Shown here one piece after another: positions 1 to 20,936 of a DNA stretch of 24,382 nucleotides. A program made the position numbers and the translations under genes. Where the stretch lies: the IMG/VR virus record IMGVR_UViG_3300002461_000857; one strand, written 5' to 3'. Position 1 is the stretch's first letter, and each line of letters starts with the position of its first letter. The notes beneath the pieces are model-generated. The model made no database searches and had not been told where the DNA came from. It saw only the letters and a program-made list of their open reading frames with translations. The stretch is from a virus.

Positions 1-310
1 TGATAGGATCGAGGAGCTCGCCCAGTGCGCCGCGGATCGGCTCGCGCCAGATCGGGATGATGCTCCCGGACAACCTGGCCAGGCACTCCGACGTGATCCA
101 GACGAAGGACTCCGGGGATCGCCCGACCTGGATCTTGAAGATCGATCGTCCCTGCCCGCACGGAACCTGGTGGAGCCGAGCATGCCAGTCGGGCCTCAGC
201 TCGGAGAGTCGCCTGAGGACTTCTCGAGCCACGACCTCTCGCGCCGACTCGACGTCTGCCGAGGGAGGAAAGACGCGTGCCTCGTGGACTGGAACGTGGT
301 TGCTATCCAC
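1..310 (-). CDS. hypothetical protein, runs off the window edge (partial)
   Basis: Not in ORF track. Translated by hand: GTG at 310 with GGAGG upstream, overlapping the stop of the 303-1055 gene; frame open to base 1 (MDSNHVPVHEARVFPPSADVESAREVVAREVLRRLSELRPDWHARLHQVPCGQGRSIFKIQVG...). Confidence 0.7.
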   Translation of the reverse strand, partial: MDSNHVPVHEARVFPPSADVESAREVVAREVLRRLSELRPDWHARLHQVPCGQGRSIFKIQVGRSPESFVWITSECLARLSGSIIPIWREPIRGALGELLDPI

Positions 311-1055
311 CTGACACCTCCGAACCTTTGATGGCTTCGATGACCAGATCGATGTCGATGAACATGGATCGACCATTGGACTCTTCGACCAGAGCCTTGA
401 CACGAGCGGAACAACGATTGCGTTCGTCGTCACGAACCATCGCTTCGAACTCGGAGGCAGAGGTACGATGACGAACAAGACCCCTCGCCCACTCGCACAT
501 GCGAGCGACATCCAAGGCTGAGAGAGGTTCGAGGTGCGGAGGATATGCCGGAGCGACGACCACGTCGGGAGGACCTGCCCTGAGCCATGACTTCAGCAGC
601 AAGGCGACTCGAGCATGCGCAGCATCTTCCTCGTCGGTACCGACCTTGCACTTGTCATCGCTCAACCTCATGAGCACGTGGCCCCGGCTCTCCGCTGCCG
701 AACGAAGCGCGTCCCGAGACGTCACGCTGTCGATCTCGGAAGGGTCGCATCTGTCTTGAACCGACTGGACCGCAAGGGCACTGCTCGAAGCACACGAGTA
801 GGTCATATCTCCGATCGCCTTGGTCCAACCGTACGGCGTCATCTCCCACCCCTTCGATGCAAGGAATCGGCAGACGATCATGTCGAGATCTTCGCGGACG
901 CGAGAGATGTCCTCCGACAGGATCGACGAGCCGACGAGACGCAGAGCGTCGCGTTCCCTCAGCGCGTGGGTTTCTTCTTCTTCTCGCGACCACGACGACT
1001 CTTCACTCTTCGTTCCCATCACTCCTCCTTCATGGTTCTCCACGTTGCTATTCAT
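303..1055 (-). CDS. hypothetical protein (250 aa)
   Basis: 3' part of ORF 303..1442; start placed at ATG 1055 (ATGA overlap with helicase stop, GGAGG 5 nt upstream). Alternative start 1019. Confidence 0.75.
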   Translation of the reverse strand: MNSNVENHEGGVMGTKSEESSWSREEEETHALRERDALRLVGSSILSEDISRVREDLDMIVCRFLASKGWEMTPYGWTKAIGDMTYSCASSSALAVQSVQDRCDPSEIDSVTSRDALRSAAESRGHVLMRLSDDKCKVGTDEEDAAHARVALLLKSWLRAGPPDVVVAPAYPPHLEPLSALDVARMCEWARGLVRHRTSASEFEAMVRDDERNRCSARVKALVEESNGRSMFIDIDLVIEAIKGSEVSGG

Positions 1056-4943: not shown

Positions 4944-5458
4944 GACTGGCTCCTTGGGTCGGGCCACGAGAGGCAGACCCTGCTGCGCATGACGCCGCTT
5001 CGAACCGCGTCCCTGAACGCGGCGATCGTTCGGATTCGATACTGGACCGTCACCCATGACTCGACACGCCCACAGTTGGAGTGAGGCATGGGCCCGTCAG
5101 CGATCAAAACGGTCCTCTCGCTGAGCTTGGCGCCTTCGATCTTGACCAGCTCGGCCAGCAGCTCGTCGGCGAGAGCGAACGCCTCAGGCGTCCCGGGCAT
5201 CTCGACGTTGCGGTAGTGGGTCGATCCTCGGCATTCGGAGTAGGACCCTCCCACGGCTCGAACCCGACGCCCGTAGCGTCGGGTGAAGTCCGGAAGATCG
5301 TAGAACCTTACCGTGAACCGACCAAGAAGACTGTTCACGATCTGGTCGATCGTCACGACGATGTCGGGGAAGGCCTTCAGCTTGCGGATCTTCGACAAGA
5401 TCTCGAGCGCGGCATCGTCCGCATCGATCACGGATCCGCCCTGTGTTGTGGTGTTCAT
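4940..5458 (-). CDS. hypothetical protein (172 aa)
   Basis: Start MNTTTQGG at 5458 with ATGA overlap and GGAG upstream. Confidence 0.75.
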   Translation of the reverse strand: MNTTTQGGSVIDADDAALEILSKIRKLKAFPDIVVTIDQIVNSLLGRFTVRFYDLPDFTRRYGRRVRAVGGSYSECRGSTHYRNVEMPGTPEAFALADELLAELVKIEGAKLSERTVLIADGPMPHSNCGRVESWVTVQYRIRTIAAFRDAVRSGVMRSRVCLSWPDPRSQS

Positions 5459-5676
5459 CGGTGGCGCTCCAGTTCGGCCCGTCCCGCGGCAGTGATCTCG
5501 TAGTGGTCGTACGCCGGTCGCAACCAACCCGCATCTTCCAGCGACCAGATCACGGAGGCGTAGCTTTCGGTGCCCGCCGCCGCTGCGAGATCATCACTCG
5601 CGGCCCTGGTGCTAGCGTCGCTGGCCTTGGCGTAAACAGCGAGAACCTTGATCGATGCGGGCATCGTGGTGTTCAT
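5455..5676 (-). CDS. small winged-helix-like DNA-binding protein (73 aa)
   Basis: ATGA-coupled start with GGAGG. C-terminal LEDAGWL...YEITAAGRAEL matches the wing/terminal helix pattern of PadR/MarR-type wHTH proteins. Confidence 0.6.
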   Translation of the reverse strand: MNTTMPASIKVLAVYAKASDASTRAASDDLAAAAGTESYASVIWSLEDAGWLRPAYDHYEITAAGRAELERHR

Positions 5677-5913: not shown

Positions 5914-6348
5914 TCACGCACACGTCTCACTGCCCGCGACGGACACGAACGCGCTAGGACTGTTCGACCCGTCGCGAAGACGGACAAGAGGAACGTCGAG
6001 TCCGTAGCCCACGAGAGCCGAGTAAGTCTCGTAGGCCCTACGCGACTCGACAAGCATCGAGACTCCGCGCCCCTTGAGCATACGACCGATCCTGACCCCG
6101 CATGGATACACGACCGAAGCTGTGGTGGATCGAACCCCACGAAGACTGGAACCCTTCTCCCAGCACGAGATCCCGCGCACGCTCCACTTGACGAAAAACT
6201 TCGCCGGAGAGAACGGGTACCTAGGTTCCTGGAACGTGGCTACGACCTCGCCGCGGTCGAAGCTTCCGCCCCGACCCCTCTCCACGATGTCGCCGATCTT
6301 GAACGGGAACAGCAACCGGAACATCTCCTGAGGCGTCATCTCGACCAT
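5914..6348 (-). CDS. hypothetical protein, first gene of leftward operon (144 aa)
   Basis: ATG 6348 preceded by GAAGG; FKIGDIV motif suggests an SH3-like beta-barrel. Start could be 6339 or 6324. Confidence 0.6.
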   Translation of the reverse strand: MVEMTPQEMFRLLFPFKIGDIVERGRGGSFDRGEVVATFQEPRYPFSPAKFFVKWSVRGISCWEKGSSLRGVRSTTASVVYPCGVRIGRMLKGRGVSMLVESRRAYETYSALVGYGLDVPLVRLRDGSNSPSAFVSVAGSETCA

Positions 6349-6379
6349 GCACACCTTCGACGTCGCAGAAACGGCCCAA

Positions 6380-6414
6380 CTTCCACTCCTGATGCGGTCT
6401 GGCGCACCAGGAGC
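6380..6414 (-). promoter_or_regulatory. leader RNA hairpin element, leftward copy
   Basis: GCUCCUGGUGCG-CCAGAC-CGCAUCAGGAGU-GGAAG: 12-bp stem (two G-U), 6-nt loop. Confidence 0.7.
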
Positions 6415-6422
6415 CTTGGGTC

Positions 6423-6451
6423 TTGCGTACACCGGTCCGGTAGGGTAACTT
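6423..6451 (+). promoter_or_regulatory. sigma70-type promoter for rightward operon
   Basis: TTGCGT (6423-6428)-N17-TAACTT (6446-6451) in an AT-richer patch at the divergence point. Confidence 0.7.
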
Positions 6452-6470
6452 TTTCAACCCGGGCAGGCAA
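6442..6470 (-). promoter_or_regulatory. sigma70-type promoter for leftward operon
   Basis: TTGCCT (6470-6465)-N17-TACCCT (6447-6442); its -10 overlaps the -10 of the rightward promoter. Confidence 0.65.
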
Positions 6471-6476
6471 GCATGA

Positions 6477-6511
6477 ACTCCTCGAGCGGCCCAGCGCATG
6501 GGGAGTGGAAG
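6477..6511 (+). promoter_or_regulatory. leader RNA hairpin element, rightward copy
   Basis: ACUCCUCGAGCG-GCCCAG-CGCAUGGGGAGU-GGAAG: 12-position stem (two G-U, one A-A mismatch), 6-nt loop; homologous to 6380-6414. Confidence 0.7.
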
Positions 6512-6554
6512 AGCGGGGTGAGGGCGCACGTCAGACCAAGCGAGAGCGAGAACC

Positions 6555-6653
6555 ATGGACCCCTTCGTCAGAACCCTTCTCTGGATCCTCGACAAGTCCG
6601 CGTTCGTCGCAGCGATCACCCTCGGGATCATCTTCGCGAGGTGCGTGTCATGA
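6555..6653 (+). CDS. small hydrophobic membrane peptide (32 aa)
   Basis: Not in ORF track: MDPFVRTLLWILDKSAFVAAITLGIIFARCVS; stop overlaps the next ATG (ATGA); GC-rich third codon positions. Confidence 0.6.
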   Translation: MDPFVRTLLWILDKSAFVAAITLGIIFARCVS

Positions 6654-6940
6654 GCGCGGACCTGTTTGCGAGAAGCCTCCTCTGGACCAAGGTTGACGAG
6701 CGCATGTACGTCGCCACTGCGTCCGTCGTGATCGACAGGCGCCCGATCAGGGTGGAGCTCCGCATCGACGGACGCGCCGCTGACCACTTCCGAGTCGACT
6801 GCGCGAAGGGCATCCCGCTGTGGGAGGCCATCGACGGGAGCCAGGAGTTCCCGACCACCCTCGCCGCGGCCAAGGTCGTTGCCAAGGTCTGGTTCAAGTC
6901 CGCCAACGACCAGGGCACACTCAGCCCGAGGTGCACATGA
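6650..6940 (+). CDS. hypothetical protein (96 aa)
   Basis: 3' part of ORF 6473..6940; ATG 6650 with GAGG upstream; ATGA overlaps at both ends. Confidence 0.7.
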   Translation: MSADLFARSLLWTKVDERMYVATASVVIDRRPIRVELRIDGRAADHFRVDCAKGIPLWEAIDGSQEFPTTLAAAKVVAKVWFKSANDQGTLSPRCT

Positions 6941-7203: not shown

Positions 7204-7523
7204 CCGCCATGCCCATCGCACCCGGAACCGTCCTTGTCTCTTCCTGGGGCTACGACCAGACCAACGTGAACTTCTACGTCGTGGTCAGCGCGACCCGAAA
7301 GACCGTCACGGTCCGGGAGCTTCGCTCCGAGGTGATCGACGGCGATCGCGTTGTCCCAGTCGCGGGCAGCGAGAACGGGCCCGCGATGCGTCGCAAGATC
7401 AACATCCGCGCAATGTCGCCGGTCCTCTGCAGCGATCGCCCCTCGGTGAGGATCGATGGAGCGTTCGCCTACCCCTGGACGGGCCGTGCCGAGCGCCAGA
7501 CCGAGGCCATGGCAGGCCACTGA
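7200..7523 (+). CDS. conserved phage/plasmid hypothetical protein with SWGYDQTNVxFY motif (107 aa)
   Basis: GTGA overlap, AGGAG upstream. GTVLVSSWGYDQTNVNFYVVV is a motif I recognise from widespread phage/plasmid proteins of unknown function. Confidence 0.8.
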   Translation: MTAMPIAPGTVLVSSWGYDQTNVNFYVVVSATRKTVTVRELRSEVIDGDRVVPVAGSENGPAMRRKINIRAMSPVLCSDRPSVRIDGAFAYPWTGRAERQTEAMAGH

Positions 7524-7526
7524 GCG

Positions 7527-7724
7527 GTGATCGAGCCCACCCAGATCCATGAGGCCGATTCTTCTCGCACGATCGGCCTGTCTGAACCTGCCGCAATCGA
7601 TCACCTGATCGTGCGCGCGATGGCATACGCGAAGCGTCCGTCGATCTCACGCAAGCGAGCCCTCATCCGTGCGATCGACACCACTCTCAAGCTCTACTCG
7701 AACCCGACGAGATCCACGCGATGA
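7527..7724 (+). CDS. hypothetical protein (65 aa)
   Basis: Fills the gap in the operon; stop overlaps next start. Confidence 0.6.
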   Translation: MIEPTQIHEADSSRTIGLSEPAAIDHLIVRAMAYAKRPSISRKRALIRAIDTTLKLYSNPTRSTR

Positions 7725-8059
7725 GTCGCACGAAGCACCCCCGTCCCCCAAAGAACGATAGCGCTCGCGCCGTTCTTTTTTCGAACGAGTCATGGGACAC
7801 ACTGCAGCACGAGATTCGATCGAAGAAGGTCGATCGCACACGACGAGACGAGTACGACACTCGTGATCCGCTCGAAAACTTCGAGTGGGACCTCTACCAG
7901 AAGTACGCTCAGGACTACGGGTTCGACGATGACGACGACTACGATCTCAACTACTGGGACCGAGGCCTACTCAAAGTTCCCGAAGACAACTACGAGCCGT
8001 ACAACGAAGACTACTACGACCCGCCATTCGTCGACCCGTGGGTCTACGACTTCGTCTAG
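7721..8059 (+). CDS. protein with basic N-terminus and Asp/Tyr-rich acidic C-terminus (112 aa)
   Basis: ATGA overlap; strong GAC/TAC codon bias; low-complexity D/Y tail. Confidence 0.8.
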   Translation: MSRTKHPRPPKNDSARAVLFSNESWDTLQHEIRSKKVDRTRRDEYDTRDPLENFEWDLYQKYAQDYGFDDDDDYDLNYWDRGLLKVPEDNYEPYNEDYYDPPFVDPWVYDFV

Positions 8060-8068
8060 GAGCGATCC

Positions 8069-8695
8069 GTGAACGCCAACGCAGAACATGAAAGATGCAG
8101 TGCCTGCGGAGGGGAGAAGGACGCCGAGGGATGGTGCTCGAGGTACTGCGAAGATCTCTCAGGTCCAGTCGACGCAGGCGTTCCGGAGATCGCCGTCCAG
8201 AGCCCGGATCGAGTGCAGAGGATGATCCGCCGCGCCGTTGTCGAGGCCATGAGGTCGAGCTGTGCCAAGAGCAAGCGTGGCGTCGTGATCTTCGACGACC
8301 TGTTTCGGGTCTACGCGTGCGGGCACAACGATCAGCCGCCAGGCATGCGATGCAACGGATCCGCAGCGTGCCGATCCTCCTGCCCGCAGCTGTGTCAGCA
8401 CGCCGAGCGGGCCGCCATGGATGCCCTCCTGATGCTTCGAATCCCCCCGGGAGAGCGTCGCGATCCTCGAGGAGGCCTGCACATGCTGCACGTGAAGGCG
8501 ATCGACGGAGCTGCTGTCCCAAGCGGATCCCCATCGTGCTGGCAGTGTTCCAGGGAGATCCTCTCCCTCGCCGAGCCTGTGGGACTCCTCGACGTGTGGC
8601 TTCTTCACGAGAACGGGATCCGATCCTACTCACCGATCGACTTCCACCGAGCAACGCTCCGGAGCTGTGAGCTGCCGATCCTCGAGGCCCCATGA
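8069..8695 (+). CDS. dCMP/cytidine deaminase-family zinc-binding protein (208 aa)
   Basis: SSCAKSKRGVVI, GHN, catalytic HAE and PSCWQC motifs; extra N-terminal CxxC...CxxxC cluster; AGGAG RBS before GTG. Confidence 0.82.
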   Translation: MNANAEHERCSACGGEKDAEGWCSRYCEDLSGPVDAGVPEIAVQSPDRVQRMIRRAVVEAMRSSCAKSKRGVVIFDDLFRVYACGHNDQPPGMRCNGSAACRSSCPQLCQHAERAAMDALLMLRIPPGERRDPRGGLHMLHVKAIDGAAVPSGSPSCWQCSREILSLAEPVGLLDVWLLHENGIRSYSPIDFHRATLRSCELPILEAP

Positions 8696-9234
8696 CCGTC
8701 ACAGACAACCACCGCGCGATCATCGACTCGATGATCCGAGCATGGGACCCCAAGGGGACCCTGGAGCACAACGAGGAAGCTCTATGGATCATGCTCTCTC
8801 CGGGGATGTTGGACCAAGGGGTGTCGGTCGGGATTCGATGTGGAAAAACATCGATCAGCTGGGAAAGCATCGGCGATGCCGTCGAGTGCCCAGAGTCCTC
8901 TCCTCGACTAGAGCTGAAGCTCGCCACCGATCTGATGGAGATCGTTGCCGAAGGCGTACGGGCGAAGATCGTCTCCTACGAGAACGATGCTGATCGCCTC
9001 GTGAACGAGAGCAGGTCCAAGGGGTCGACTTCACACGCGTTGTGGACACAGGATCTTTCGGATCACCTCGCGTTCATGTCCACGTCATGGACGGCGATCG
9101 GATACCACAACGCGGTGTTCACCTCGATCGCCAATGGCAATCGGTGGACAGTACATCTCCATCCAGACGCGCTGAACGTCGCGCTGCTTCGCGACATGCA
9201 GGACACCCCTACGACGTTGGGACGCAGGCCATGA
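8692..9234 (+). CDS. hypothetical protein (180 aa)
   Basis: ATGA overlaps at both ends, GAGG upstream. Confidence 0.75.
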   Translation: MTVTDNHRAIIDSMIRAWDPKGTLEHNEEALWIMLSPGMLDQGVSVGIRCGKTSISWESIGDAVECPESSPRLELKLATDLMEIVAEGVRAKIVSYENDADRLVNESRSKGSTSHALWTQDLSDHLAFMSTSWTAIGYHNAVFTSIANGNRWTVHLHPDALNVALLRDMQDTPTTLGRRP

Positions 9235-9695
9235 CGACAACCGAGAACGACCTCGCCCAGGCCCATCTGAAGATCAGCGAGCTGACGCGCGAGCTCGCCG
9301 ATGCACAGGCCCAGATCGCGACGCTGCAGGACAAGGACGCTCCGATTCCGATCCTCCTGCACTGCCCTTTCTGCAACCATCGCCACATCGACGTCGGCGA
9401 GTTCGCCACGAAGCCACACCACACCCACAGCTGTCAGCGCTGCGGCGAGTCTTGGAGGCCCGCCGTGGTCAAGACGGTCGGCGTCCAGTTCCTGCCGGGC
9501 TTCAAGAACGTGGCCTCGATCGAGGACCTGATGCTCGAGGCTGCTTGGTACATCCGATCCGCGGCAGTCACGGAGCCGGAGGAAGGCCTCGTCGCCGAGG
9601 CAACCGGGCATGCACTCGCCGATCGCATGTTCGACGCGCTCGGGATCGATCGAACCGGTCCCGAGCACAAGCACGAGAAGGAACCGACACCTTGA
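9231..9695 (+). CDS. coiled-coil plus zinc-finger phage protein (154 aa)
   Basis: ATG 9231 (ATGA); heptad N-terminus, then PIPILLHCPFCNHRHID...PHHTHSCQRCGESWRP, a phage CxxC/HxH/CxxC motif. Confidence 0.8.
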   Translation: MTTTENDLAQAHLKISELTRELADAQAQIATLQDKDAPIPILLHCPFCNHRHIDVGEFATKPHHTHSCQRCGESWRPAVVKTVGVQFLPGFKNVASIEDLMLEAAWYIRSAAVTEPEEGLVAEATGHALADRMFDALGIDRTGPEHKHEKEPTP

Positions 9696-10168
9696 GCAAG
9701 TCCACGCACATCATGATCGGGTGCAGCAGCGCCAAGCGCGACGGGGTCAGGACTGCTGTTGGCATGTACACCGGACAGCTCTTCGACCTCTCGCTACGGT
9801 GGGCGAATCTTCAACTCGCACATCTATGGATCCTCTCGGCGAAGTACGGCCTGCTCGAGAGGTTCCAACGTATCGAGAGCTACAACTGCACCCTGAATGG
9901 GGCTGAAGAGATCCGCGCCTGGAACGAGCGAGTCGAGATCGACATTCGCAACGCGACCCGGAAGGGCGATAGGATCATCGTGCTGGCCGGATCGAACTAC
10001 AGCGGATGGTGCGACGACCTCGCTGAGCAGGGCAGGATCATCGAGCAGCCGCTGCGTGGCATGGGGATCGGGACCAGGAAGCAGTGGCTCGCCAAGCAGA
10101 TCGAAGTCATGTCCGCGCAGAGAATCGAGCCACAAGGGAAGACTCCACCGAAGAAGGTGACGCGATGA
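9692..10168 (+). CDS. DUF6884-family protein (158 aa)
   Basis: TTG start overlapping upstream TGA. Motifs IGCSSAK, MYTGQLF, WILSAKYGLL, IESYN, LAGSNY, PLRGMGIGTRKQWL. Confidence 0.85.
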   Translation: MSKSTHIMIGCSSAKRDGVRTAVGMYTGQLFDLSLRWANLQLAHLWILSAKYGLLERFQRIESYNCTLNGAEEIRAWNERVEIDIRNATRKGDRIIVLAGSNYSGWCDDLAEQGRIIEQPLRGMGIGTRKQWLAKQIEVMSAQRIEPQGKTPPKKVTR

Positions 10169-10365
10169 ACGAAGAACCGAAGTGGAAGCGCGAGAAGAAG
10201 CGATGGGAGCTGTGGCAAGGAGAGTGCCTCCTCGCGATCTGCGAACCTGCTCAGACCCGGGGCCACTGGTGGTGGTCCCTGTGGAAGGTGTCAGGGTGTC
10301 CCGCTGGCTACGAGTTCTCGTTGGCCGAAGCGAAAGAGTACGCCAGATCGGCGGCAGCCCGATGA
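10165..10365 (+). CDS. small Trp-rich hypothetical protein (66 aa)
   Basis: ATGA overlaps at both ends; SLAEAKEYA C-terminal helix common in small phage proteins. Confidence 0.72.
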   Translation: MNEEPKWKREKKRWELWQGECLLAICEPAQTRGHWWWSLWKVSGCPAGYEFSLAEAKEYARSAAAR

Positions 10366-11729
10366 CACCTGCAACTGAGTCTCGATCGAAGCGACATGCC
10401 AACTTCTCGATGACCGGGAAGGATCTGACCAGGATTGCCCGAACCCTCGTGCTCGACGATCGCCCCGAGCTCGCATATCAGACCCTTGCAAAGGGTCTCC
10501 TCGGCAAGGGTGCCAGCGAAGCGGCGATCCGCATCTTGCAGGGGCATAGCAAGCTCGTCGGGGGCATGGAGTGCTTGAGGCTGACGACGGAGAGGAAGTC
10601 CAAGGCGCTCGACGAGTTCAAGCGCAAGGTCAACTTCACCTACGCTGGACGGATCAAGACGCAAGGAACCTGGGTCCGCCCTGTCGAGTGGATTGATTCC
10701 GACGAGGGCGAGAAGCTCCAACGCTCCCACGCGATCCACTACGCGCGCCCCGGGGGAGCAATCGAGCCTCTCGACGTTCCCGGCGAAGGTAAGCGATGGG
10801 TGGTTTTCGAGCAATGCACGGAACGTCCGATGTGGCAAGACTCTCCCGCGAGCATGCAAGGGGCGCTCGACGAGTTCATCGCAGCGGGACGATCCATTGA
10901 AGTCGTCCGCGTCGATCCGCTCCGAAGCGGCGACCTCGACGACATCTTCGGAGATCCGGATCAGGAGTGGGAGGAGAGCGAGCGAGAGGAGCGAGAGGAG
11001 GAGAGCGAGCGAGAGGAGCGAGAGGAGCGAGAGGAGCGAAAATGGTACTCGAAGATCGCGAAGATCGCCGATGCGGTTCGTGAGCAGGCCGGCGACAACA
11101 CGTTTGTCATGACCTTGCTCAGCGGTCGAGAGGTGAAGGTCCCTCGAGCCCCGTTCGTTCGCTGGGCGTTTCGCGGCACCGATCTGGGAGACGCAGCGCC
11201 AGAGTGGACGAACGTCGCGGAGTCCGGACTCAAGCTGCCGCTCGACAGCCGCGATCACTCCGACTGGGTCCTCGGATCTGGGCTGACCCTCGAAGAGGCC
11301 TACACCGACGAAGTGATCCGTCCCGCCTACGATGCGATGTTCGAGATCCAGGAGGAGATCCGCAGCTCCAGAGAGTCGAAGCGTCCGTATGCCGGAATCT
11401 TCGCAGCGCTCGACAACCTGCGCAGCAAGCGGATCCCCGCCGCCTGCATCATCGACAACGGCGAGGTCACCGGAGTCGTCGGATCCGAGATCCTGGTATT
11501 CCCCGACTCGGATGGACGCAGGGTCGCTGAGCTTGGCAACTGCAAAGGCCTCGTGGTGGAACAAGGCGGGCCGCTCGCGCATCTGGTCATCACATCCAAG
11601 GGCCTCCGCATCACTGTCATGCGCCACCCCAACGCAATCGAGCTGCTTCGCCCAGGGTCGACGATCACCCTCAACCCTTCCTCTGGACGGATCACCGTGC
11701 TCGAGGAGAAGACCGAATCCGAGACCTGA
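10362..11729 (+). CDS. protein with C-terminal PEP-utilising enzyme mobile (phosphohistidine swivel) domain (455 aa)
   Basis: C-terminal GEVTGVV...ILVFP...KGLVVEQGGPLAHLVITSKG...LRPGSTITLNPSSGRITV matches the GGxxxH swivel signature; N-terminal ~370 aa unrecognised. Confidence 0.8.
   Translation: MTPATESRSKRHANFSMTGKDLTRIARTLVLDDRPELAYQTLAKGLLGKGASEAAIRILQGHSKLVGGMECLRLTTERKSKALDEFKRKVNFTYAGRIKTQGTWVRPVEWIDSDEGEKLQRSHAIHYARPGGAIEPLDVPGEGKRWVVFEQCTERPMWQDSPASMQGALDEFIAAGRSIEVVRVDPLRSGDLDDIFGDPDQEWEESEREEREEESEREEREEREERKWYSKIAKIADAVREQAGDNTFVMTLLSGREVKVPRAPFVRWAFRGTDLGDAAPEWTNVAESGLKLPLDSRDHSDWVLGSGLTLEEAYTDEVIRPAYDAMFEIQEEIRSSRESKRPYAGIFAALDNLRSKRIPAACIIDNGEVTGVVGSEILVFPDSDGRRVAELGNCKGLVVEQGGPLAHLVITSKGLRITVMRHPNAIELLRPGSTITLNPSSGRITVLEEKTESET
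10971..11039 (+). repeat. purine-rich tandem repeat (GAGGAGCGA-type) encoding EESEREEREEESEREEREEREER
   Basis: Directly visible in-frame repeat. Confidence 0.9.
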
Positions 11730-11745
11730 TCAGAGGAGAACGATC

Positions 11746-12750
11746 ATGAAGAAGACCCTGTACGCCTCCATCATCCTCATCGCCTGCGACCCAGGACAGG
11801 GATCCGACTTCCGAGTCGCGTGCCCCGACGCCACCAGCGGATCTCCAGAGGATCCTCCGCCGCCCCCGCCGCCGCCTCCATCGATCGGGATCCCCGTCCC
11901 CACCGCGACGTGCCCGGAGATCATCGACGGATCGATCACGATCTGTCCCTCGGCCATGCTCGAGTGTCGTGACGTCGTCGTGATCAACGCGTCGTCTGCC
12001 ACGGGATCCGGACCACTCGCCTTGCACTGGCACGGCACGTTCGAGACCCCTGAAGCGCTCCTCGAATGGGACTCGGCAGCGCTCGCGATCCGATCCATGG
12101 TGGAGTCCGAGGGAGGCCTGATGGTCTTGCCTCGAGCAGATCCGGAAGCGGTAGCGCGACCCAGCAACCCCTTCCCGTGGTGGGTGGTGTGCGGTGCAAC
12201 GCCGTCGCAGTGCAGCCGGCCCGACGACTTCATCGTCGCCGACGAGGTTGTGGCCTGTGCCGTCGAGCAAGGCCTGGTCGATCCGACGAGAATCACGACG
12301 TCGGGCATGTCCGCGGGCGGGATCATGACGTCCCATCTCGTGGACCGTGTCGGATACCTGGCCGGTGCGGTGAGCTGGTCCGGAGGCCTTCCCGAAGCGT
12401 TCCAGCCCACGACGCCGGCCGGAGACGCGGCGGTCATGGTGATCCACGGCGGCGTCACCGATCAGTACTGCGGCGCAGGTCAGCCGACCGGGACCTGCTA
12501 CTCCTTCATGGATCCCAGCCATGACCTCGCGCTCGACGTCTCGACCTCTGGAGACTTCGCGTTCCTGTGTGATCATCAGGCCGGCCACAGCACCGCGATG
12601 GCCGGAGAGGGCGCCGCGTTCCTCGCCGCCTCGAGCACCGGAGGTCATCCTTGGGCCGGGTATCCGTTCGGTCACCCCGGCGATGGACCGAACTGGATGC
12701 TCAACCACTACTGCTACGCCCCAGGCACACCGTCGCCCTGGGCGCAGTGA
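11746..12750 (+). CDS. lipoprotein alpha/beta-hydrolase esterase (PHB depolymerase/LpqC-like), 334 aa
   Basis: GAGGAG RBS; signal MKKTLYASIILIAC (lipobox-like); poly-Pro linker; oxyanion WHG; nucleophile GMSAGG after VDPTRI; HGGVTD acid; DHQAGH catalytic His region. Confidence 0.87.
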   Translation: MKKTLYASIILIACDPGQGSDFRVACPDATSGSPEDPPPPPPPPPSIGIPVPTATCPEIIDGSITICPSAMLECRDVVVINASSATGSGPLALHWHGTFETPEALLEWDSAALAIRSMVESEGGLMVLPRADPEAVARPSNPFPWWVVCGATPSQCSRPDDFIVADEVVACAVEQGLVDPTRITTSGMSAGGIMTSHLVDRVGYLAGAVSWSGGLPEAFQPTTPAGDAAVMVIHGGVTDQYCGAGQPTGTCYSFMDPSHDLALDVSTSGDFAFLCDHQAGHSTAMAGEGAAFLAASSTGGHPWAGYPFGHPGDGPNWMLNHYCYAPGTPSPWAQ

Positions 12751-12807
12751 TCGATCGTTCGGACAAGAACTGGGACCGATCTCCTACTCGATCGGATCGA
12801 GAACGCC

Positions 12808-13290
12808 ATGAAACACATCATCTCCATCCTTCTCATGGTCTGCGCGTGCGGCGACGATCGAAATCCTCCTGCGCCGGTCGAAGGTGTCTCCGAATCGGAT
12901 CCTCCGTCCACCAACTGCTCCGCCTATCTCGGGTGCGCCAAGCTGTGTGAAGACGCGTCTTGCGTCGACGCATGTGCTGAGGCTACGCTGGCGCCCGTGA
13001 TCGCTTGCGAGGCAGAGCGGTGCGAGAGACTTCTTGCTGCTTGCGACGAAGGGAACACGTTCGCATGTTCCGAGCTCCCGAAGTGCGGCGGGTACGAGGA
13101 GATCAGTACCACATCGGGTATGTCTGACTCATGGTCTTCGAGCAGCGGAGGCACGAGCAGCGATTCGAGCAGTAGCACGAGCGTTGATTCGGGTAGTGAA
13201 TCGAGCAGCGACTCCAGCGGCGGAAGCACGAGCGGCGACACAGGAGAATGGACGGAGTCCTCGGGTGAAACCGGGAACACGAGCACCTAA
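12808..13290 (+). CDS. Cys-rich lipoprotein with Ser/Gly/Thr-rich tail (160 aa)
   Basis: MKHIISILLMVCACGDD lipobox; CxxxC repeats; SSSSGGTSSDSSSSTS tail reminiscent of myxobacterial lipoproteins. Confidence 0.8.
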   Translation: MKHIISILLMVCACGDDRNPPAPVEGVSESDPPSTNCSAYLGCAKLCEDASCVDACAEATLAPVIACEAERCERLLAACDEGNTFACSELPKCGGYEEISTTSGMSDSWSSSSGGTSSDSSSSTSVDSGSESSSDSSGGSTSGDTGEWTESSGETGNTST

Positions 13291-13332
13291 CGCAAACGAA
13301 GACATTTCGTCTTCCTAGGGACCGACAACGAC

Positions 13333-14253
13333 ATGACAAGGCACTTCACAACCACCATCATCTTCATGATCCTCCTCATCGTTGCTTCGTGCAACGTGGA
13401 ATTCATCCATCAAATCGACACCGAAGACATCGGATCCGACACGGGCGATGTCGAGTTCCGTGCGTTCACCGACTGGCCAGAGGTCGGATGGGGCGCCGCC
13501 GAGATGTGCTGTCCCGTCATCGGAGGTCAGCATCAGCGCGAGTACTGCACCCCAGGCAACGTTCCTGCGGACTGCGACGCGCTTCCTGCCATCCCGAGCA
13601 AGTCGATCACGTCGTGGCGTCTTTCCGGGTGCTATCAGTGTGGCGATGGCTACTCCGGATACGGAGATCTCGCGTGGGCGTCGTACGGTCCCGGTTGGGG
13701 CTACGAGTGCTTCGGCCAGCTCCGCGACGCGGACGTTCCGTATTGGCCAACCCCGACCTACGCGTGGAACGCCTTCGACATGGGCGACAACTGTTGGTCG
13801 CCGAAGAACACCGACAAGCACGTCCCGTGCCCTGCTGGAACGACGGCAGCGTGCAAGGCCGGAGCGACTGAGTGCCAGACGAGTGTCTACGACTCGGAAG
13901 AAGACTCCACGAACTGGCTCGACATCGGCGACGAGATGCTGATGTGCTGCAAGGACAACGGTTCGTCGTGCGTACCTCTCGACGACATCGGCAACTGTCC
14001 CAACGGAGCGTCCACTCTCGGGTACACGGTGAAGATGTTCTGCAGCCAGTGCAACAACGGCTGTCAAGGATGGGATCTCATCCGCGACGGAGCCGCCTCC
14101 CAGACACAGGAACAGCTCGAGTCACTCCAGTGTGGGAAGAAGGTCGATGGCCTCGTTCCTTTGCGGTACCACTGCGACGGGGAGCTGTGGGACCCGTCCG
14201 CGTACGAAATCGTGAAGCCGTGTCCCGCTTCGAGCGGACTGTGCATCGACTGA
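13333..14253 (+). CDS. Cys-rich putative lipoprotein (306 aa)
   Basis: Hydrophobic signal ending IVASC; more than 20 Cys including CC and CxxC; acidic. Confidence 0.8.
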   Translation: MTRHFTTTIIFMILLIVASCNVEFIHQIDTEDIGSDTGDVEFRAFTDWPEVGWGAAEMCCPVIGGQHQREYCTPGNVPADCDALPAIPSKSITSWRLSGCYQCGDGYSGYGDLAWASYGPGWGYECFGQLRDADVPYWPTPTYAWNAFDMGDNCWSPKNTDKHVPCPAGTTAACKAGATECQTSVYDSEEDSTNWLDIGDEMLMCCKDNGSSCVPLDDIGNCPNGASTLGYTVKMFCSQCNNGCQGWDLIRDGAASQTQEQLESLQCGKKVDGLVPLRYHCDGELWDPSAYEIVKPCPASSGLCID

Positions 14254-14280
14254 TCGTCTAGGACATCGACATCATCAACG

Positions 14281-14321
14281 GGGGAGGACCTGGTCGCAAG
14301 GACCAGTCCTCCCCTTCTCTT
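14281..14321 (+). terminator. Rho-independent terminator
   Basis: GGGGAGGAC(C)TGGTC-GCAAG-GACCAGTCCTCCCC stem followed by TTCTCTT, directly after the lipoprotein cluster. Confidence 0.75.
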
Positions 14322-14342
14322 GACCGAAAAGGAACCGACCCC

Positions 14343-14594
14343 ATGAAGATCCACGCCCTATTCATCCTCCGCAACGGAGAAGGGACTCCTGAGCTCCAGA
14401 CGGCCTGGGACGAGTACTGCGTCGACGAGAACTTCGAGGTCTTCGAAAAGGAGTGCAAGGAGAAGATCGAAGCGATCGGAACTGAGCTCGAGTCTCACGT
14501 GATCGTCATGATCGAGGTCCCTGAAGAAAAGATCATGAAGCGACTTCGGAAGCCGACGCTCCATGTGACAGGTGTTGTCCAGGACGAGGAGTGA
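14343..14594 (+). CDS. hypothetical phage protein (83 aa)
   Basis: AAGGA RBS; acidic; PELxxAWDEY motif. Confidence 0.8.
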   Translation: MKIHALFILRNGEGTPELQTAWDEYCVDENFEVFEKECKEKIEAIGTELESHVIVMIEVPEEKIMKRLRKPTLHVTGVVQDEE

Positions 14595-14595
14595 G

Positions 14596-15021
14596 GTGAA
14601 GGACTGTCTCATCGTGACGGTGACCGGAGGACGAGCGTACGAGTCGACCCTGGCCGACATGGCTAGATTCATGGCCATCATCTCTGGTCGAAGCCGATCG
14701 GTGGTCGTCCGATGCGGTGGAGCTAAAGGTCTCGATGAGCAGATCTACGATCTTGTCGGCCTCATCGATCCATCTCGGAATATCCGAAGAGAGCTGTGGC
14801 GAGCTGACTGGGATCGATTCGGGAGACGGAAGGCTGGACCTATCCGCAACCGAGGCATGCTCCGTGGCGACACATCGACGATCGTGAGGCAATGCGTAGG
14901 CGGCATTGCTACAGCAAACAAGCCTGCGGATCTCCTGGTCTCGTTTCCAGGAGGATCCGGTACGAGGGACTGCACCGGTGCCGCAGGGGCGCTAGGCATC
15001 CCGATCAAGATCATGTACTGA
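14596..15021 (+). CDS. SLOG-superfamily protein (YspA cpYpsA-related/DUF2493), 141 aa
   Basis: GTG 14596 after GAGGAG. Motifs VTGGRAY, GGAKGLD, ADWDRFG.KAGPIRNRGML, FPGGSGT. Confidence 0.88.
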   Translation: MKDCLIVTVTGGRAYESTLADMARFMAIISGRSRSVVVRCGGAKGLDEQIYDLVGLIDPSRNIRRELWRADWDRFGRRKAGPIRNRGMLRGDTSTIVRQCVGGIATANKPADLLVSFPGGSGTRDCTGAAGALGIPIKIMY

Positions 15022-15040
15022 CGAAGGAGAGAACACACTC

Positions 15041-16915
15041 ATGGCGATCCATCTACCCATGTTCCAACCCAAGGTCCCGGTCGGAGGACTGATCAAGAAC
15101 GGCATTCTCGTCCCGGTGATGAACAACGACGGGACCCAACGTCTCGATCGCTGGAAGAAACCTCTGTTTCGTCCGAAGCAGGTCGACTCGTGGATCATCA
15201 TGACTCCGATCAAGGACCAAGACGGCCTGTACGTCGTCGACGAGAAGGCGATGGCGGCGCTGCCGAAGGATTCGGATGAGAAGTGCCGGAGACTTCCTGT
15301 GTTCTTCTCGTCCGACGATCTCGAGGAGTCGGCTCGGACCTACCTCGCAGGGTACATCGGTCCAGTCCGCGTATGCATCGGAGATGGGAAGAACGCGACA
15401 CGATGGGAGATCAAGGCTGGCGTCAAGACCGGCAACAAGCAGGAGCGCAAGTGCCCGTGCGAGTGGCTCACTGCGCCCGAGGAAGACGGACCCAAGTGTT
15501 CGGGGACGCTCGATCTTCGATGCAGCATCGATTTGAAGGATGCTGTGACGCTCGGATCGGTGCATCGCTACCAGACCCACGGCGTGATCGGGATTTCGGA
15601 GCTCGTCGGATCTCTCATCCACATCCAGCGGGTGATCGGATCGATCGTGGCCGTTCCCATGTGGCTGTGCCTCAAGCCAGTGGTCGTGAATCCCAAGGGG
15701 ATGGGTCGGAAGACGGTCTACACCGCCTACCTCGAGATCAGAGGCAACAACATCGAAGGCCTGCAGAAGACCGCGCTGGCCCGGGCATCTGCGGTCCGGG
15801 AGGTGGCCAAGATCGCCGGTCTCCCATTCCAGTTCAGCCTGCCCGGCCCGGAGGAAGAGAGCGAGGAGGACGAAGCCGACGCGGCGAGGGAGTTTCTCCC
15901 CGATGTGATCGACACCACGATCTCGGATCGCGGGGAAGCCTCGAAGCGGAGCACTCCACCGGTCGCTCCTCTGCAGGATCAGAAGCCGACCCCCGAGCAG
16001 ATGACGCAGATCAAGGTGAGGATGGGAAAGCTGTCCTCGCTCTTGAACGAGCCTACCTCCGACAAGCAGGAGCGGATGCGTCGCATGTCGCAGATGGCCA
16101 AGAGGATCCTGCACGGACTCGGCTACAGGTTCGGCGACCTCAACATGTCGCAGTACGTCGAAGTCGCAGAGATCCTCGAGAAGCACATCCTCATCGAGGA
16201 GGGGATCATTCGACTCGAGGCGCTCTTCGGCATGGACGACAAGGCGAAGGCCCGCGACTACCTCCTGAACAGGATCGGGATCAAGGACGCGAACCAGATC
16301 GAACCTTCGATTCTCGACGAAATCCTGGTGAATCTCCAAGAGGCGATCATCCTCTCGGAACAGATCGAGACGTCCGACGACAAGACCGGCGAGCGTTCGG
16401 ATGACGATGACGACATCGGAGACGACGACATCGGAGACGACGACGACGGAGACGACGGAGACGACGGAGACGACTGGGACGACGATGACGAAGGTTCTGG
16501 TGGTGTCGAAGACAAGCCGGACGCCCCACCCGAAGCCGTGAACAGCGAGAAGGATACCGCGCCATCCCCAGCCCCCGAACCTGGCGCTGAGAAGGTCGAT
16601 CCTCCTCCGGCTCCGACATCTGCGGTCGAAGAAGAGGCCAAGGCTCGTCCACCTGGTCTCTCTGAGGATCCGGACAAGGTCCTCGGGAAGAACGATCCGC
16701 TTCGATCCAGGCTCGAGACCTCGATCGAGAAACTCGCGAAGCTTCGCGGCATCGACGGAAATGTCAAAGAGCGCAAGGAGCTTCTCGCGATCGTCTCGCA
16801 GGGAGAGATCGGACGATCGGTCACCATGTCTCAGATCACGAGCTCCATGGCGATGAAGCTGATCCCTGCGTTCGAGCAGTTGATCCAGGCAAGGGAGCAG
16901 GGAGAGCTCGGATGA
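15041..16915 (+). CDS. phage Gp3-like (recombination directionality factor-like) protein with long acidic C-terminal extension (624 aa)
   Basis: AAGGAG RBS; PKVPVGGLIKNG, LPVFFSSDD, CIGDG, CPC...KC, GSVHRYQTHG, VPMWLCL pattern; Asp-rich linker and repeated helical C-terminal domains. Confidence 0.7.
   Translation: MAIHLPMFQPKVPVGGLIKNGILVPVMNNDGTQRLDRWKKPLFRPKQVDSWIIMTPIKDQDGLYVVDEKAMAALPKDSDEKCRRLPVFFSSDDLEESARTYLAGYIGPVRVCIGDGKNATRWEIKAGVKTGNKQERKCPCEWLTAPEEDGPKCSGTLDLRCSIDLKDAVTLGSVHRYQTHGVIGISELVGSLIHIQRVIGSIVAVPMWLCLKPVVVNPKGMGRKTVYTAYLEIRGNNIEGLQKTALARASAVREVAKIAGLPFQFSLPGPEEESEEDEADAAREFLPDVIDTTISDRGEASKRSTPPVAPLQDQKPTPEQMTQIKVRMGKLSSLLNEPTSDKQERMRRMSQMAKRILHGLGYRFGDLNMSQYVEVAEILEKHILIEEGIIRLEALFGMDDKAKARDYLLNRIGIKDANQIEPSILDEILVNLQEAIILSEQIETSDDKTGERSDDDDDIGDDDIGDDDDGDDGDDGDDWDDDDEGSGGVEDKPDAPPEAVNSEKDTAPSPAPEPGAEKVDPPPAPTSAVEEEAKARPPGLSEDPDKVLGKNDPLRSRLETSIEKLAKLRGIDGNVKERKELLAIVSQGEIGRSVTMSQITSSMAMKLIPAFEQLIQAREQGELG
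16400..16491 (+). repeat. GAC-rich tandem repeats encoding the poly-Asp/Gly tract
   Basis: GACGACATCGGAGAC and GACGACGGA units, in frame. Confidence 0.85.
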
Positions 16916-17502
16916 TTCTCCATCCTCCCCAGGGTCATCCATTCCACGCCGCCACGGTCTTCCGTGGCGACGAGGACTCGTGGGCCATCTTCTCTCCCTG
17001 CGAGACGATGCGGTACGTCCTGGGGAGGAGACTGAGCCATGCACCGCTCCTCGTCTTCTTGCTGTTGAACCCAAGCACAGCTGACGAGATCGAACTCGAC
17101 CCAACACTGCGTCGATGCATCGACTTCGCGGCGAACATGTGGGGTTACGGAGGCATGATCATCCTCAACGCGTATGCGCTACGGACCAAGGATCCGAAGC
17201 TTCTTCCTCGCGTCAAGAGTCCTCGCGTCAAGAGGATGGTCTGCGACAGCGCGATCGGTCCGGAGAACAACTTCGCGATCGAGTACTACACCAAGGGACG
17301 GGACGTCTTGGTCGGATGGGGTAACCACTGCTCCGGTCCTCGGATGAGAAGGATCTCTCAGATCATTTCGTCGACGGCAAGGAACGTGGAGTGTCTGGAG
17401 ATCAACAAGAACGGATCACCAACGCACCCTCTGTACCTGCGCAAGGATAGCGTTCGCAAGCCTTGGGTCATGCCATACAGCATCGGTACGGTGGGAGCGT
17501 AA
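16912..17502 (+). CDS. DUF1643-family protein (196 aa)
   Basis: AIFSPC..RYVLGR, LNPSTAD..DPTLRRC, NAYALRTKDP, GPENN, VGWG, NGSPTHPLY. Confidence 0.92.
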   Translation: MILHPPQGHPFHAATVFRGDEDSWAIFSPCETMRYVLGRRLSHAPLLVFLLLNPSTADEIELDPTLRRCIDFAANMWGYGGMIILNAYALRTKDPKLLPRVKSPRVKRMVCDSAIGPENNFAIEYYTKGRDVLVGWGNHCSGPRMRRISQIISSTARNVECLEINKNGSPTHPLYLRKDSVRKPWVMPYSIGTVGA

Positions 17503-17505
17503 GCA

Positions 17506-18084
17506 ATGGCTGATCACAAGACGTGTCCTTCATGCGGATGGGTGCTTCATGGACATGCCCGAAGCGAAGCGCTGACGTGCGACGCTTGCGGGATGATCGT
17601 CCCAAGGGGTCTTCTTCCAGACGATCCGTCGTCGAAGCTGAAGATCGTCGATACAGACCTGATGTCGTCGAGGTCCGAAGCGGTGGTCAACGCCGTCAAC
17701 ACGGTCGGAGTGATGGGGAAGGGCGTCGCGCTGCTCTTCAAGAAGAAGTACCCCGACTACTTCTCCTCGTACGCCAAGGCGTGTCGATCAGGAACTATCC
17801 GGATCGGATCCGTCTTCGAGTACGAACTCGGGAGCGCCGGTCCGCCTTCGTGGATCCTGAGCGTTCCAACCAAGAGGCACTGGCGAGATCCTTCGGGTAT
17901 CGCCGACGTCGAACGCGGAGTCGAGGCGCTTTGGCGTTCGATTCTTCACCTCAAGATCGGATCCGTTTCCGTACCGGCACTCGGATGCGGAGAGGGAGGA
18001 CTTTCCTTCTCACGGGTCGGGCCGATCCTGGTGAAGTACCTGTCGAGCCTCAGCTGCGAAGTGTTCATCCACATGCCAAGGTAG
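17506..18084 (+). CDS. DarG-like macrodomain ADP-ribosyl hydrolase with N-terminal zinc ribbon (192 aa)
   Basis: VNAVNTVGVMGKGVALLFKKKYP, PTKRHWRDPS, PALGCGEGGL; N-terminal CPSC...CDAC; GGGAG RBS. Confidence 0.9.
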   Translation: MADHKTCPSCGWVLHGHARSEALTCDACGMIVPRGLLPDDPSSKLKIVDTDLMSSRSEAVVNAVNTVGVMGKGVALLFKKKYPDYFSSYAKACRSGTIRIGSVFEYELGSAGPPSWILSVPTKRHWRDPSGIADVERGVEALWRSILHLKIGSVSVPALGCGEGGLSFSRVGPILVKYLSSLSCEVFIHMPR

Positions 18085-18090
18085 AACCCA

Positions 18091-18459
18091 ATGAGCGAGA
18101 ACCGAATCATCGACACCACGCAACCTGTGAACTACTTCATCGGACCAGAGGAATCTTGGGGCAGGAGCATGGCTCTTCCTCGAGGCATCGATCCGCATGA
18201 GTTCTTCGACCAGATCGCCCCCGAGTTCGAACGGATGCGCCAGTTCTTCATCCAACAGAGCCAGGTCTCTGGAAAGGTTGGAACCGAGCTCCACCTCATC
18301 GAGATGTTCCGCGCCGTTTGGGTGATGGCCTCGGAGGCGCTGAAGCAGAAGGATGCGGAGACCAAGGATGCGGAGACCAAGGCCCTTGCAGCCGCTGTCA
18401 TGGACCTGCAGTCGCAGATCAATGAGATCCGCCGATCTCTTCGAGGGGACCTCCCGTAG
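18091..18459 (+). CDS. hypothetical protein (122 aa) with duplicated KDAET
   Basis: AAGG upstream; exact 15-nt tandem duplication 18349-18378; C-terminal coiled coil. Confidence 0.78.
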   Translation: MSENRIIDTTQPVNYFIGPEESWGRSMALPRGIDPHEFFDQIAPEFERMRQFFIQQSQVSGKVGTELHLIEMFRAVWVMASEALKQKDAETKDAETKALAAAVMDLQSQINEIRRSLRGDLP

Positions 18460-18475
18460 GCCTCGAGGTCACGGC

Positions 18476-18505
18476 TGGACGGAGGACTCTGGACGGCGCT
18501 AGACT
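18476..18505 (+). promoter_or_regulatory. putative promoter for a leaderless gene
   Basis: TGGACG-N18-TAGACT ending 7 nt before ATG 18513; no clear SD. Confidence 0.5.
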
Positions 18506-18512
18506 GCCGGGG

Positions 18513-18974
18513 ATGAGAAAAAATCCCCCAAGTGTCCGTCCCGGAGCGCGTATCCGTCCACGCCTCGTCCCTCCCCTACGTTCCGACGATCCGCCCAAGC
18601 GTGCGGGTCCGAAGATCGAGCAGGCGAAGCTCTCGAGCCTCGACGCTGCTCGTCAGCGGACCTCCGCCGTCGCAGCGCCTCTCACCCCAAGCGAGGGTCG
18701 GGTCATGCCCACTCCAGAGGCCGCAGGACCTCCGTCGCTGGCGACGGTGGCCGACCTGCTGTCTCAGATCCGGGATGAGATCCTCGGCCTGCGCGAGGAC
18801 TTCAGTGCCATGATCAACATGGCCGGCGACAGCGAAGAGGTCGAGGAGGAGGACCCCGAGTCGCCTACCGGATCCCACGCCTCCGAGCACGGGGAGGGTG
18901 AGGACGGGGAGGATGGCGAGCACGAGGGCGGCGACGTCGAGGAGGAGAGCCCCGAGTCGCCTACCGGATCCTGA
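18513..18974 (+). CDS. largely disordered protein: basic Pro-rich N-terminus, short coiled coil, acidic tail (153 aa)
   Basis: LLSQIRDEILGLRED helix; tail has an exact 22-nt direct repeat (18854-18875, 18950-18971) encoding PESPTGS. Confidence 0.72.
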   Translation: MRKNPPSVRPGARIRPRLVPPLRSDDPPKRAGPKIEQAKLSSLDAARQRTSAVAAPLTPSEGRVMPTPEAAGPPSLATVADLLSQIRDEILGLREDFSAMINMAGDSEEVEEEDPESPTGSHASEHGEGEDGEDGEHEGGDVEEESPESPTGS

Positions 18975-18985
18975 GCTCGAAGTTC

Positions 18986-19035
18986 GGCAGTGCGGCCGAA
19001 ACCAGGGTCCTAGAACGGCGCTCGACCGCACTGCC
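18986..19035. terminator. inverted repeat between convergent genes
   Basis: GGCAGTGCGGCCGA-N22-TCGACCGCACTGCC; the single mismatch becomes G-U on the minus strand; no clear U tract. Confidence 0.45.
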
Positions 19036-19121
19036 TACCAGCTTTCTGATCGATCAACGAGTCCCCTGTCCCCGCGATCGCTGACGATCTTCCAGTGGTG
19101 GCCCCACGCTAATCGTGAGGA

Positions 19122-19743: not shown

Positions 19744-19817
19744 CGGGGCGGAGCGTAACGCAGGCTGAGGGGTGGATGTCCATCCATCCTTTGAGGATCT
19801 TCACACCTGATCGACCA

Positions 19818-19945: not shown

Positions 19946-19962
19946 CGTATACGATGGCGAGG

Positions 19963-20871: not shown

Positions 20872-20936
20872 TGCGACCAGGATCGCTCCTGCGATTGTTC
20901 TACGAACCGATCCCTGGATCGGTTAGATTTCTTCCC

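Follow-up and report, generated by a model that had tools for sequence, protein, structure and literature searches.

Several described systems come close to the locus considered here. The PeSLs of the T4-type phages RB49 and phi1 are repeated intergenic cassettes in which a promoter is combined with a GC-rich, G-T-containing stem-loop in front of ORFan-rich early genes (PMC2839356, PMC4122927), and these cassettes terminate transcription in vivo and serve as a point of recombination, in one instance within the loop (PMC2839356). Promoters of ECF sigma factors have spacers of 16-18 bp (PMC7776599); two mapped ECF26 promoters of S. meliloti, those of rpoE4 and SMc04291, have the form GGAAT-N17-CGTC-N8-start, SMc02156 has GGAAG (PMC6180224), and M. 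tuberculosis SigH uses GGAA-N19-GTT (PMC4803200). Among bidirectional promoters, a distance of ~23 bp between the two starts is one of the preferred spacings (bioRxiv 10.1101/2020.01.31.928960). Finally, the put RNA of phage HK022, which comprises two stem-loops over ~70 nt and a pause fixed 21 nt behind the stem, binds the zinc-binding domain of beta' and in this way suppresses both pausing and termination (PMC9378689).

How does our locus compare with these? The window, that is, the whole stretch of DNA that was analyzed, comprises 24,382 nt of the IMG/VR record IMGVR_UViG_3300002461_000857 and has 62% G+C. A sequence-only reading had reported two copies of a 35-nt hairpin element in the leaders of divergent operons, at 6414-6380 (-) and 6477-6511 (+), and both are indeed present at these coordinates. 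The 6-nt loops, the GGAAG tail, and the ACGTC found 16 nt downstream are seen in both window copies, and the pairings given for the left and right stems (G-U/A-U at pair 1, U-A/U-G at pair 6, G-C/C-G at pair 7, and U-A/A-A at pair 9) are all confirmed. Thirty-five nucleotides describe a genuine element but not the full unit, which is ~65 nt long and in gap-free alignment consists of a 12-nt arm, a 6-nt loop, a second 12-nt arm, GGAAG, 17 free bases, CGTC, and a semiconserved 9 nt ending in T|G. The parts of the two window copies, and the genes that they precede, are as follows.

6385-6414, minus strand: left 12-6-12 inverted repeat (5' arm 6414-6403, loop 6402-6397, 3' arm 6396-6385)
6380-6384, minus strand: left GGAAG, immediately next to the stem, a candidate ECF-type -35 box that is invariant in 9/9 tailed copies
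6359-6362, minus strand: left CGTC, separated by 17 nt from GGAAG, a candidate ECF-type -10 box
6477-6506, plus strand: right 12-6-12 inverted repeat (5' arm 6477-6488, loop 6489-6494, 3' arm 6495-6506), with A-A at pair 9
6507-6511, plus strand: right GGAAG, candidate ECF-type -35 box, from sequence and from conservation among tailed copies
6529-6532, plus strand: right CGTC, candidate ECF-type -10 box, from sequence
5914-6348, minus strand: first left-arm gene, with no Pfam or PHROG match and only hypothetical atlas neighbors
6555-6940, plus strand: first right-arm genes, of 32 aa and 96 aa, whose sole homologue is a protein of a related strain (L030)

The setting is that of a large phage. 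Positions 7506-24314 of the window match a 21,907-bp ENA contig at 100% identity, which comes from an activated-carbon biofilter metagenome, and positions 1-923 match the start of a 175,068-bp ENA contig, also at 100%. Because these two contigs sum to 196,975 bp, close to the 101,828 + 95,598 bp of other assemblies with these genes, we infer a genome of ~197 kb; virion-protein matches, tRNAs, and a primase on the long contig, together with helicase relatives in complete viral genomes, indicate that it is a phage genome. Four tRNA genes were located (L035:1982-2135; L056:9266-9339 and 11204-11276), and a candidate replication origin lies ~4 kb from the primase genes (L056:11384-11840), in a divergent gap of 456 nt that has no genes but contains both GC-rich inverted repeats and AT-rich runs. 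The left arm of the window junction carries small genes without known function and then a DUF6094 methyltransferase-helicase, and the right arm, of ~12 kb, carries dCMP-deaminase-like, phosphohistidine swivel domain, Gp3-like, DUF1643, and macro-domain genes. The first left-arm gene has only its first ~70 aa in common with its 85-aa L030 orthologue, and the structure prediction for its product gives no reliable fold (pLDDT, 31); a KOW/NusG-like identity for this gene finds no support in the family and atlas comparisons listed above. Elsewhere in the window, a strong terminator-like hairpin with a U6 tail lies at 19913-19948 (+), with no plus-strand gene directly 5' of the gap.

Taken from the window alone, the likeness of the two copies is only modestly above chance: 26 of 35 positions are identical, which is the top inverted match of the window, and the maxima in 12 resampled windows are 23-25. 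This doubt is removed because the same pair recurs at a second junction and in a second strain. A metagenome scan recovered the second divergent junction (L027/L035), which has the same pair plus a third copy without the tail; it lies on the 175,068-bp contig, and the identical sequence was obtained from a second sample. The second junction was considered as an independent lineage, a possibility rejected on finding that this contig carries window positions 1-923 at 100%; since both junctions belong to the same phage genome, the second is a paralogue and adds no independent evolutionary support. Strain SRR28552080, ~91% identical, has orthologues of both junctions (L030 and L046) and one extra copy. 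In total, there are 11 copies at six positions in the two strains, nine of them tailed and representing five tailed paralogues, and the genes flanking the six positions are mostly without family. A covariance model gives all of the collected tailed copies 65-86 bits and nothing elsewhere above 22 bits, including in four genomes of distant relatives. Two further candidates, a partial match at 10957-10973 and a weak model match at 10036-10107, were rejected as lying in coding sequence. Apart from L027, pattern scans of viral contigs, species genomes, and metagenomes returned chance matches only, blastn against phages and plasmids returned no match, and the element is absent from helicase relatives of 45-60% identity (L038, L040, and L047-L051; whole genomes G001-G004). 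The claim that the hairpin corresponds to no recognized motif holds as well, in that Rfam yields no match at gathering score and chance matches alone up to an E value of 10. The element is real and under selection, and it is known so far from one uncultured phage lineage with two strains; it would be of known kinds (a stem-loop/promoter cassette and an ECF-type promoter), and the element itself is absent from Rfam.

The part of this unit that is best explained is the tail, which we think is probably a DNA promoter for an ECF-type sigma factor, because its spacer is fixed in length and random in sequence, because its geometry is that of mapped ECF promoters, and because one copy, L046:2851(-), has the tail without an outer stem or sigma70 promoter. 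The distance from GGAAG to CGTC is 17 nt in all nine tailed copies, and only 1-8 of these 17 bases are identical among the five paralogues (mean, 27%); the flanks have indels of 1, 2, and 5 nt, and the spacer length is unchanged. Between orthologues, substitutions are rare in the constrained parts (3/60 in the 3' arm, 0/20 in GGAAG, 0/16 in CGTC, and 1/36 in the next 9 nt) and common in the neutral parts (9/68 in the spacer and 8/30 in the loop, with 208/1074, or 19%, at four-fold sites); the 5' arm, with 6/60, is under intermediate constraint. A T|G step, a sequence signature alone, occurs exactly 8 nt after CGTC in four of the five tailed paralogues. On the left, the T|G that marks this predicted start is at 6350, which leaves 2 nt to the ATG at 6348 and 11 nt to the ATG that follows. 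On the right, the predicted start is at 6541-6542, 13-14 nt before the ATG at 6555; the step there is C|G and is shifted downstream by one base relative to the other copies, and the right copy is the weakest of all downstream of CGTC. The predicted ECF-type leaders are 2-32 nt long.

In total, the geometry is GGAA-N18-CGTC-N8-(+1), with bipartite boxes, a free spacer in the 16-18-bp range, and spacer identity at background. The tail is like the promoters of S. meliloti RpoE1/RpoE4 and M. tuberculosis SigH in its GGAA, its 17-nt free spacer, its CGTC, and the Y|R step of its predicted start 8-9 nt further on, and its GGAA-to-GTC spacing equals the GGAA-to-GTT spacing of SigH; in contrast, its fifth base is G rather than T or C, and an invariant 12-nt block with an inverted partner precedes the -35 box. 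A GGAAC-N16-18-CGTCR promoter for M. tuberculosis SigM, for which literature searches gave no confirmation, is not used as evidence. Readings of the tail as a sigma54 or sigma32 promoter, made by eye on all copies, fail on spacing or conservation. Nor did a sigma factor gene turn up in the ~60 kb of this genome that were read, and four distant relatives likewise lack PF04542.

Copy L046:2851(-) keeps the 3' arm and the whole tail, lacks the outer 5' arm (-6 kcal/mol) and an adjacent sigma70 promoter, follows a stop codon, and heads a two-gene insert. The insert, defined by L046:2390-2851 against L035:10495-10545, is strain specific, encodes proteins of 53 and 62 aa, and has one end exactly at the border of the loop and the 3' arm; in the window's strain, the corresponding stretch is missing from the loop onward, and at its opposite end the indel does not resemble the element. 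Throughout the ~60 kb read, the tail always occurs with the 3' arm. As a separate observation, a distant 185-kb relative contains an outward-facing pair of GAGGT-N17-CGTCGA sequences (L048:5467-5574), the only two exact copies in that genome; the -10-like box and the spacer are as in the tail, and the upstream box is different. That relative also encodes a 114-aa sigma4-like helix-turn-helix frame.

The two arms are separated by a conserved bidirectional core of sigma70 type, in which each strand reads TTGC-N19-TAnnnT and from which two further promoters are predicted.

6423-6451, plus strand: P1R, predicted rightward sigma70-type promoter (-35 TTGCGT 6423-6428, 17 nt, -10 TAACTT 6446-6451; start ~6458)
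6442-6470, minus strand: P1L, predicted leftward sigma70-type promoter (-35 TTGCCT 6470-6465, 17 nt, -10 TACCCT 6447-6442; start ~6435)

The second junction and the second strain both repeat the layout of P1R, whose score is under the threshold of a consensus scanner. The -10 boxes of P1L and P1R interlock, and their predicted starts are ~23 bp apart, so that the core at 6423-6470 resembles described bidirectional promoters; by sequence it is an ordinary member of that class, which leaves the flanking cassettes unexplained. The distance from the stem to the predicted -10 box is 23-27 nt in six copies and 60-65 nt in two, in each of which the copy lies behind a tail-less one. With respect to these predicted sigma70-type starts, the earlier placement of the element ~20 nt behind both divergent starts holds in both arms.

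Based on the observations outlined above, we posit, with a probability of roughly 40%, a PeSL-like composite cassette with two tandem promoters in each arm of the divergent junction. In the first step, the host housekeeping RNA polymerase would initiate at the interlocked sigma70-type promoters. Some 20 nt on, the GC-rich 12-bp hairpin may pause or attenuate transcription or mark the transcript for processing, a step that has moderate support, and P1 output into the operon would thereby be gated by the hairpin. In the third and best-supported step, GGAAG-N17-CGTC would act as a promoter recognized by an ECF-type (group IV) sigma factor, encoded by either the host or the phage; with starts 8-9 nt after CGTC, it would yield short-leader mRNAs without the hairpin and restart transcription under separate control. 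Such an element would more likely be a two-step transcription-start switch than an RNA antitermination signal. The basis for this reading is the sequence of the element, its repetition and geometry, the selective constraint on it, and a single gene-cassette indel with an end in the loop.

The analogy to PeSLs is close in that a cassette of a promoter and a GC-rich stem-loop is repeated between genes, at six positions in two strains, and in that the loop of one copy is the site of a gene indel. The promoters of PeSLs, however, are sigma70 consensus promoters with an AT-rich UP region, and their stem-loops lie mostly between or over the boxes, whereas here the stem abuts an ECF-type -35 box, stands at a variable distance behind a separate sigma70-type promoter, and occurs mainly at divergent junctions; a strong sigma70 consensus with AT-rich upstream sequence was not found. 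PeSL-type shuffling would be expected to involve two copies, and the one indel has one end in a loop and the other in nonhomologous sequence. Other features also weigh against the composite cassette: GGAAG is a minority form among ECF -35 boxes, which are usually GGAAC or GGAAT; the hairpin has no U-tract, and an attenuator merely 20 nt behind its own promoter is odd; the stem tolerates mismatches and shows no significant covariation; a leader of only 2 nt would result from the left ECF-type start; every copy comes from one lineage of two strains; and the ~60 kb read hold no sigma factor gene. If the tail is an ECF-type promoter, early ORFan-rich operons would run from housekeeping and stress-type sigma promoters in tandem, an arrangement for which a literature search found no example in a phage, and the motif would point to the cognate sigma factor of the host.

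Does the stem act as RNA or as DNA? The single copies fold at -20.8 and -17.2 kcal/mol (z, -4.6 and -2.7, for left and right, respectively), and the entire leaders fold no better than shuffles (z, -0.9 and +0.4). The hairpins had been described as covarying, a description that is too strong: only one pair is double-changed across the nine tailed copies, in one lineage, and 209 of 500 shuffles do as well, which is not significant in a test that has little sequence diversity to draw on, namely, two strains of one lineage. Palindrome correction is a possible cause of the single double change. In the L030 orthologues, the left stem has a single difference, G-U to A-U, and the right stem has pair 6 changed from U-G to C-A. 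Overall, eight of nine orthologous stem substitutions swap Watson-Crick and G-U pairs when read in the sense of the transcript, the ninth producing C-A (naive p, 0.02, the changes not being independent), and the sense strand folds better than the antisense strand in 9 of 11 copies. A mutational keto bias was considered as the cause of the lean toward G-U and was rejected, since four-fold sites show no keto skew. Because of the eight G-U exchanges, the better folding of the sense strand, and the lack of keto skew, we lean, nearly evenly, toward a sense-strand RNA hairpin rather than a DNA operator. The tolerance of the stem for mismatches speaks for an operator: pair 9 is A-A in 7 of the 11 copies, and G-G and C-A are also present.

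The operator alternative keeps the same tandem promoters and takes the inverted repeat as the DNA site of a dimeric regulator, of the phage or the host, that switches from the inner to the outer promoters. We consider it somewhat less likely than the composite cassette, and it is the strongest of the rivals. The repeat abuts the ECF-type -35 box on one side and on the other lies just upstream of the opposite sigma70 -35 box, an arrangement comparable to that of lambda OR between PR and PRM; the loop is 6 nt in 11/11 copies and neutral in sequence, and the half-sites vary almost independently. Consistent with a DNA site, both halves of the tail-less third copy match the half-site consensus despite its G-G mismatch, and this copy lies 42 bp, or four turns, from a full copy in both strains despite a 5-nt indel just upstream. 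Another repeated hairpin of this genome changes its stem length, as is usual for RNA. Against a regulator site stand the transcript-sense G-U lean and a gap to the opposite sigma70 -35 box that ranges from -1 to 8 bp, with left and right sites out of phase; moreover, no conserved regulator candidate was found, the winged-helix-like gene at 5455-5676 being missing in L030. That gene, on the minus strand, encodes 73 aa, was judged winged-helix-like by eye, and has no PHROG match.

Can the element instead be an antiterminator? The sequence-only reading proposed a nut/put-like system in which the nascent RNA makes RNA polymerase terminator resistant; the CGTC block would then be a pause or loading signal or, alternatively, the tail would be a separate promoter. 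We regard this as rather improbable. Support for it comes from the placement of the element ~20 nt behind both divergent starts at two junctions, from the G-U lean of the stem changes, from long codirectional gene runs, and from an internal terminator that has no evident promoter after it.

14281-14322, plus strand: intrinsic-terminator-like hairpin (hairpin 14281-14314, -27.3 kcal/mol), inside the rightward gene run

The terminator reported there is real, but its U-tail is weak, and simple leak-through can therefore serve the distal genes; genes resume on the same strand 29 nt after it, and no TTGC-N19-TAnnnT promoter follows. Lambda nut consists of a boxB hairpin with a conserved GNRA-like, purine-rich pentaloop, boxA, and the N protein. 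The window copies are like nutL and nutR in placing a short hairpin in both early leaders; unlike them, they have a 12-bp stem, a neutral 6-nt loop where boxB needs a conserved one, no boxA, and no conserved block 5' of the stem. An arginine-rich, N-like candidate was sought among first genes in about one third of the genome; these genes match no family, and their arginine content does not exceed 3-5 residues in 15 aa. With putL and putR, the likeness lies in paired elements behind divergent early promoters (here predicted), in the 21 nt from the stem end to a downstream signal, here the RCGTC block (PMC9378689), and in the lack of an evident phage protein. In contrast to put, with its two stems over ~70 nt, the element has a single stem, its tail has no common fold and folds differently and weakly in each copy, there is no sequence likeness, the downstream block is GC rich and promoter-like, each genome has at least two junctions, and the host is apparently not an enterobacterium. 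Copy L046:2851, with a tail and no hairpin, also argues against an antiterminator. The earlier reading had itself taken starts downstream of the elements to count against antitermination, and the fixed-distance tail has the anatomy of an ECF promoter with its predicted start behind the hairpin. With no significant covariation, a neutral loop, no second stem, and no N-like protein found, antitermination is not supported specifically.

A variant that joins the hairpin RNA and the ECF-like tail into one unit, in which an ECF-type or sigma-like factor halts the sigma70 polymerase at the tail and the hairpin converts it to a terminator-resistant state, seems quite unlikely to us; it would be a new kind of loading site for antitermination, with traits of both qut and put, in a nonlambdoid large phage. 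If the hairpin were an antiterminator, RNA-based antitermination would extend well beyond the lambdoid coliphages. Whether promoter or antiterminator, this short element comes with natural tail-less and stem-less variants and is easily tested in a reporter.

Two readings are very improbable. Translational control, which the sequence-only reading offered as its alternative, or a leader peptide would have the stem hide a Shine-Dalgarno-like GGAG and the ATG of MGSG-type short frames, and GGAG does lie within the 3' arm and a 14-codon frame does open in several copies, but a distance of 37-67 nt separates GGAG from the called starts, ATG is replaced by ATC in the left copy, and the frames, which contain nonsynonymous changes, are inconsistent, being 7 or 14 codons long or continuing into the next gene; inspected by eye on all copies, the leader-peptide version fails on spacing or conservation. 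Likewise, a tyrosine-recombinase-like site, suggested by the similarity of 12-6-12 to 11-6-11 and 13-8-13 recombinase architectures and by the strain-specific two-gene indel ending at the loop/3'-arm border, or a solitary CRISPR-repeat mimic would leave the bipartite tail unexplained; in addition, the other end of the indel is unlike the element, the central 6 nt differ between copies and drift in a way that such recombinases do not tolerate, and no Rfam CRISPR repeat matches even at an E value of 10.

The same genome and its relatives contain other repeated motifs. A second repeated element is a ~55-nt sense-strand hairpin with a conserved internal CCGUAACGCAG and an apical stem of variable length; it is intergenic, immediately 5' of ribosome-binding sites, in each of the two operons at the second junction, has no Rfam match, and recurs in an unrelated 68-kb complete phage in a copy whose outer stem is compensated. 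Its copies lie at the following positions.

L035:7582, minus strand: ~55-nt hairpin
L035:8244, minus strand: ~55-nt hairpin
L035:12837, plus strand: ~55-nt hairpin
L035:13349, plus strand: ~55-nt hairpin
L046:4817, plus strand: ~55-nt hairpin
L046:76, minus strand: ~55-nt hairpin
L058:1171-1204, minus strand: ~55-nt hairpin

This hairpin looks more clearly like RNA than the 12-6-12 element does, and it is a candidate processing site, ribozyme, or recombination cassette. In a distant relative, a divergent gap (L050:6400-6590) holds five TCCGGA-centered palindromes, the best form being CCACTCCGGAGTGG, which have the word GGAGTGG in common with the 12-6-12 element, possibly by chance. Finally, divergent gaps in two helicase relatives (L038:8360-8480 and 9330-9490; L040:8570-8700 and 9265-9485) have the short motifs GGGGTAGAA and GGAGTTTCACGTT in common, and, judging by these motifs, a different regulatory grammar stands there beside the same helicase module.
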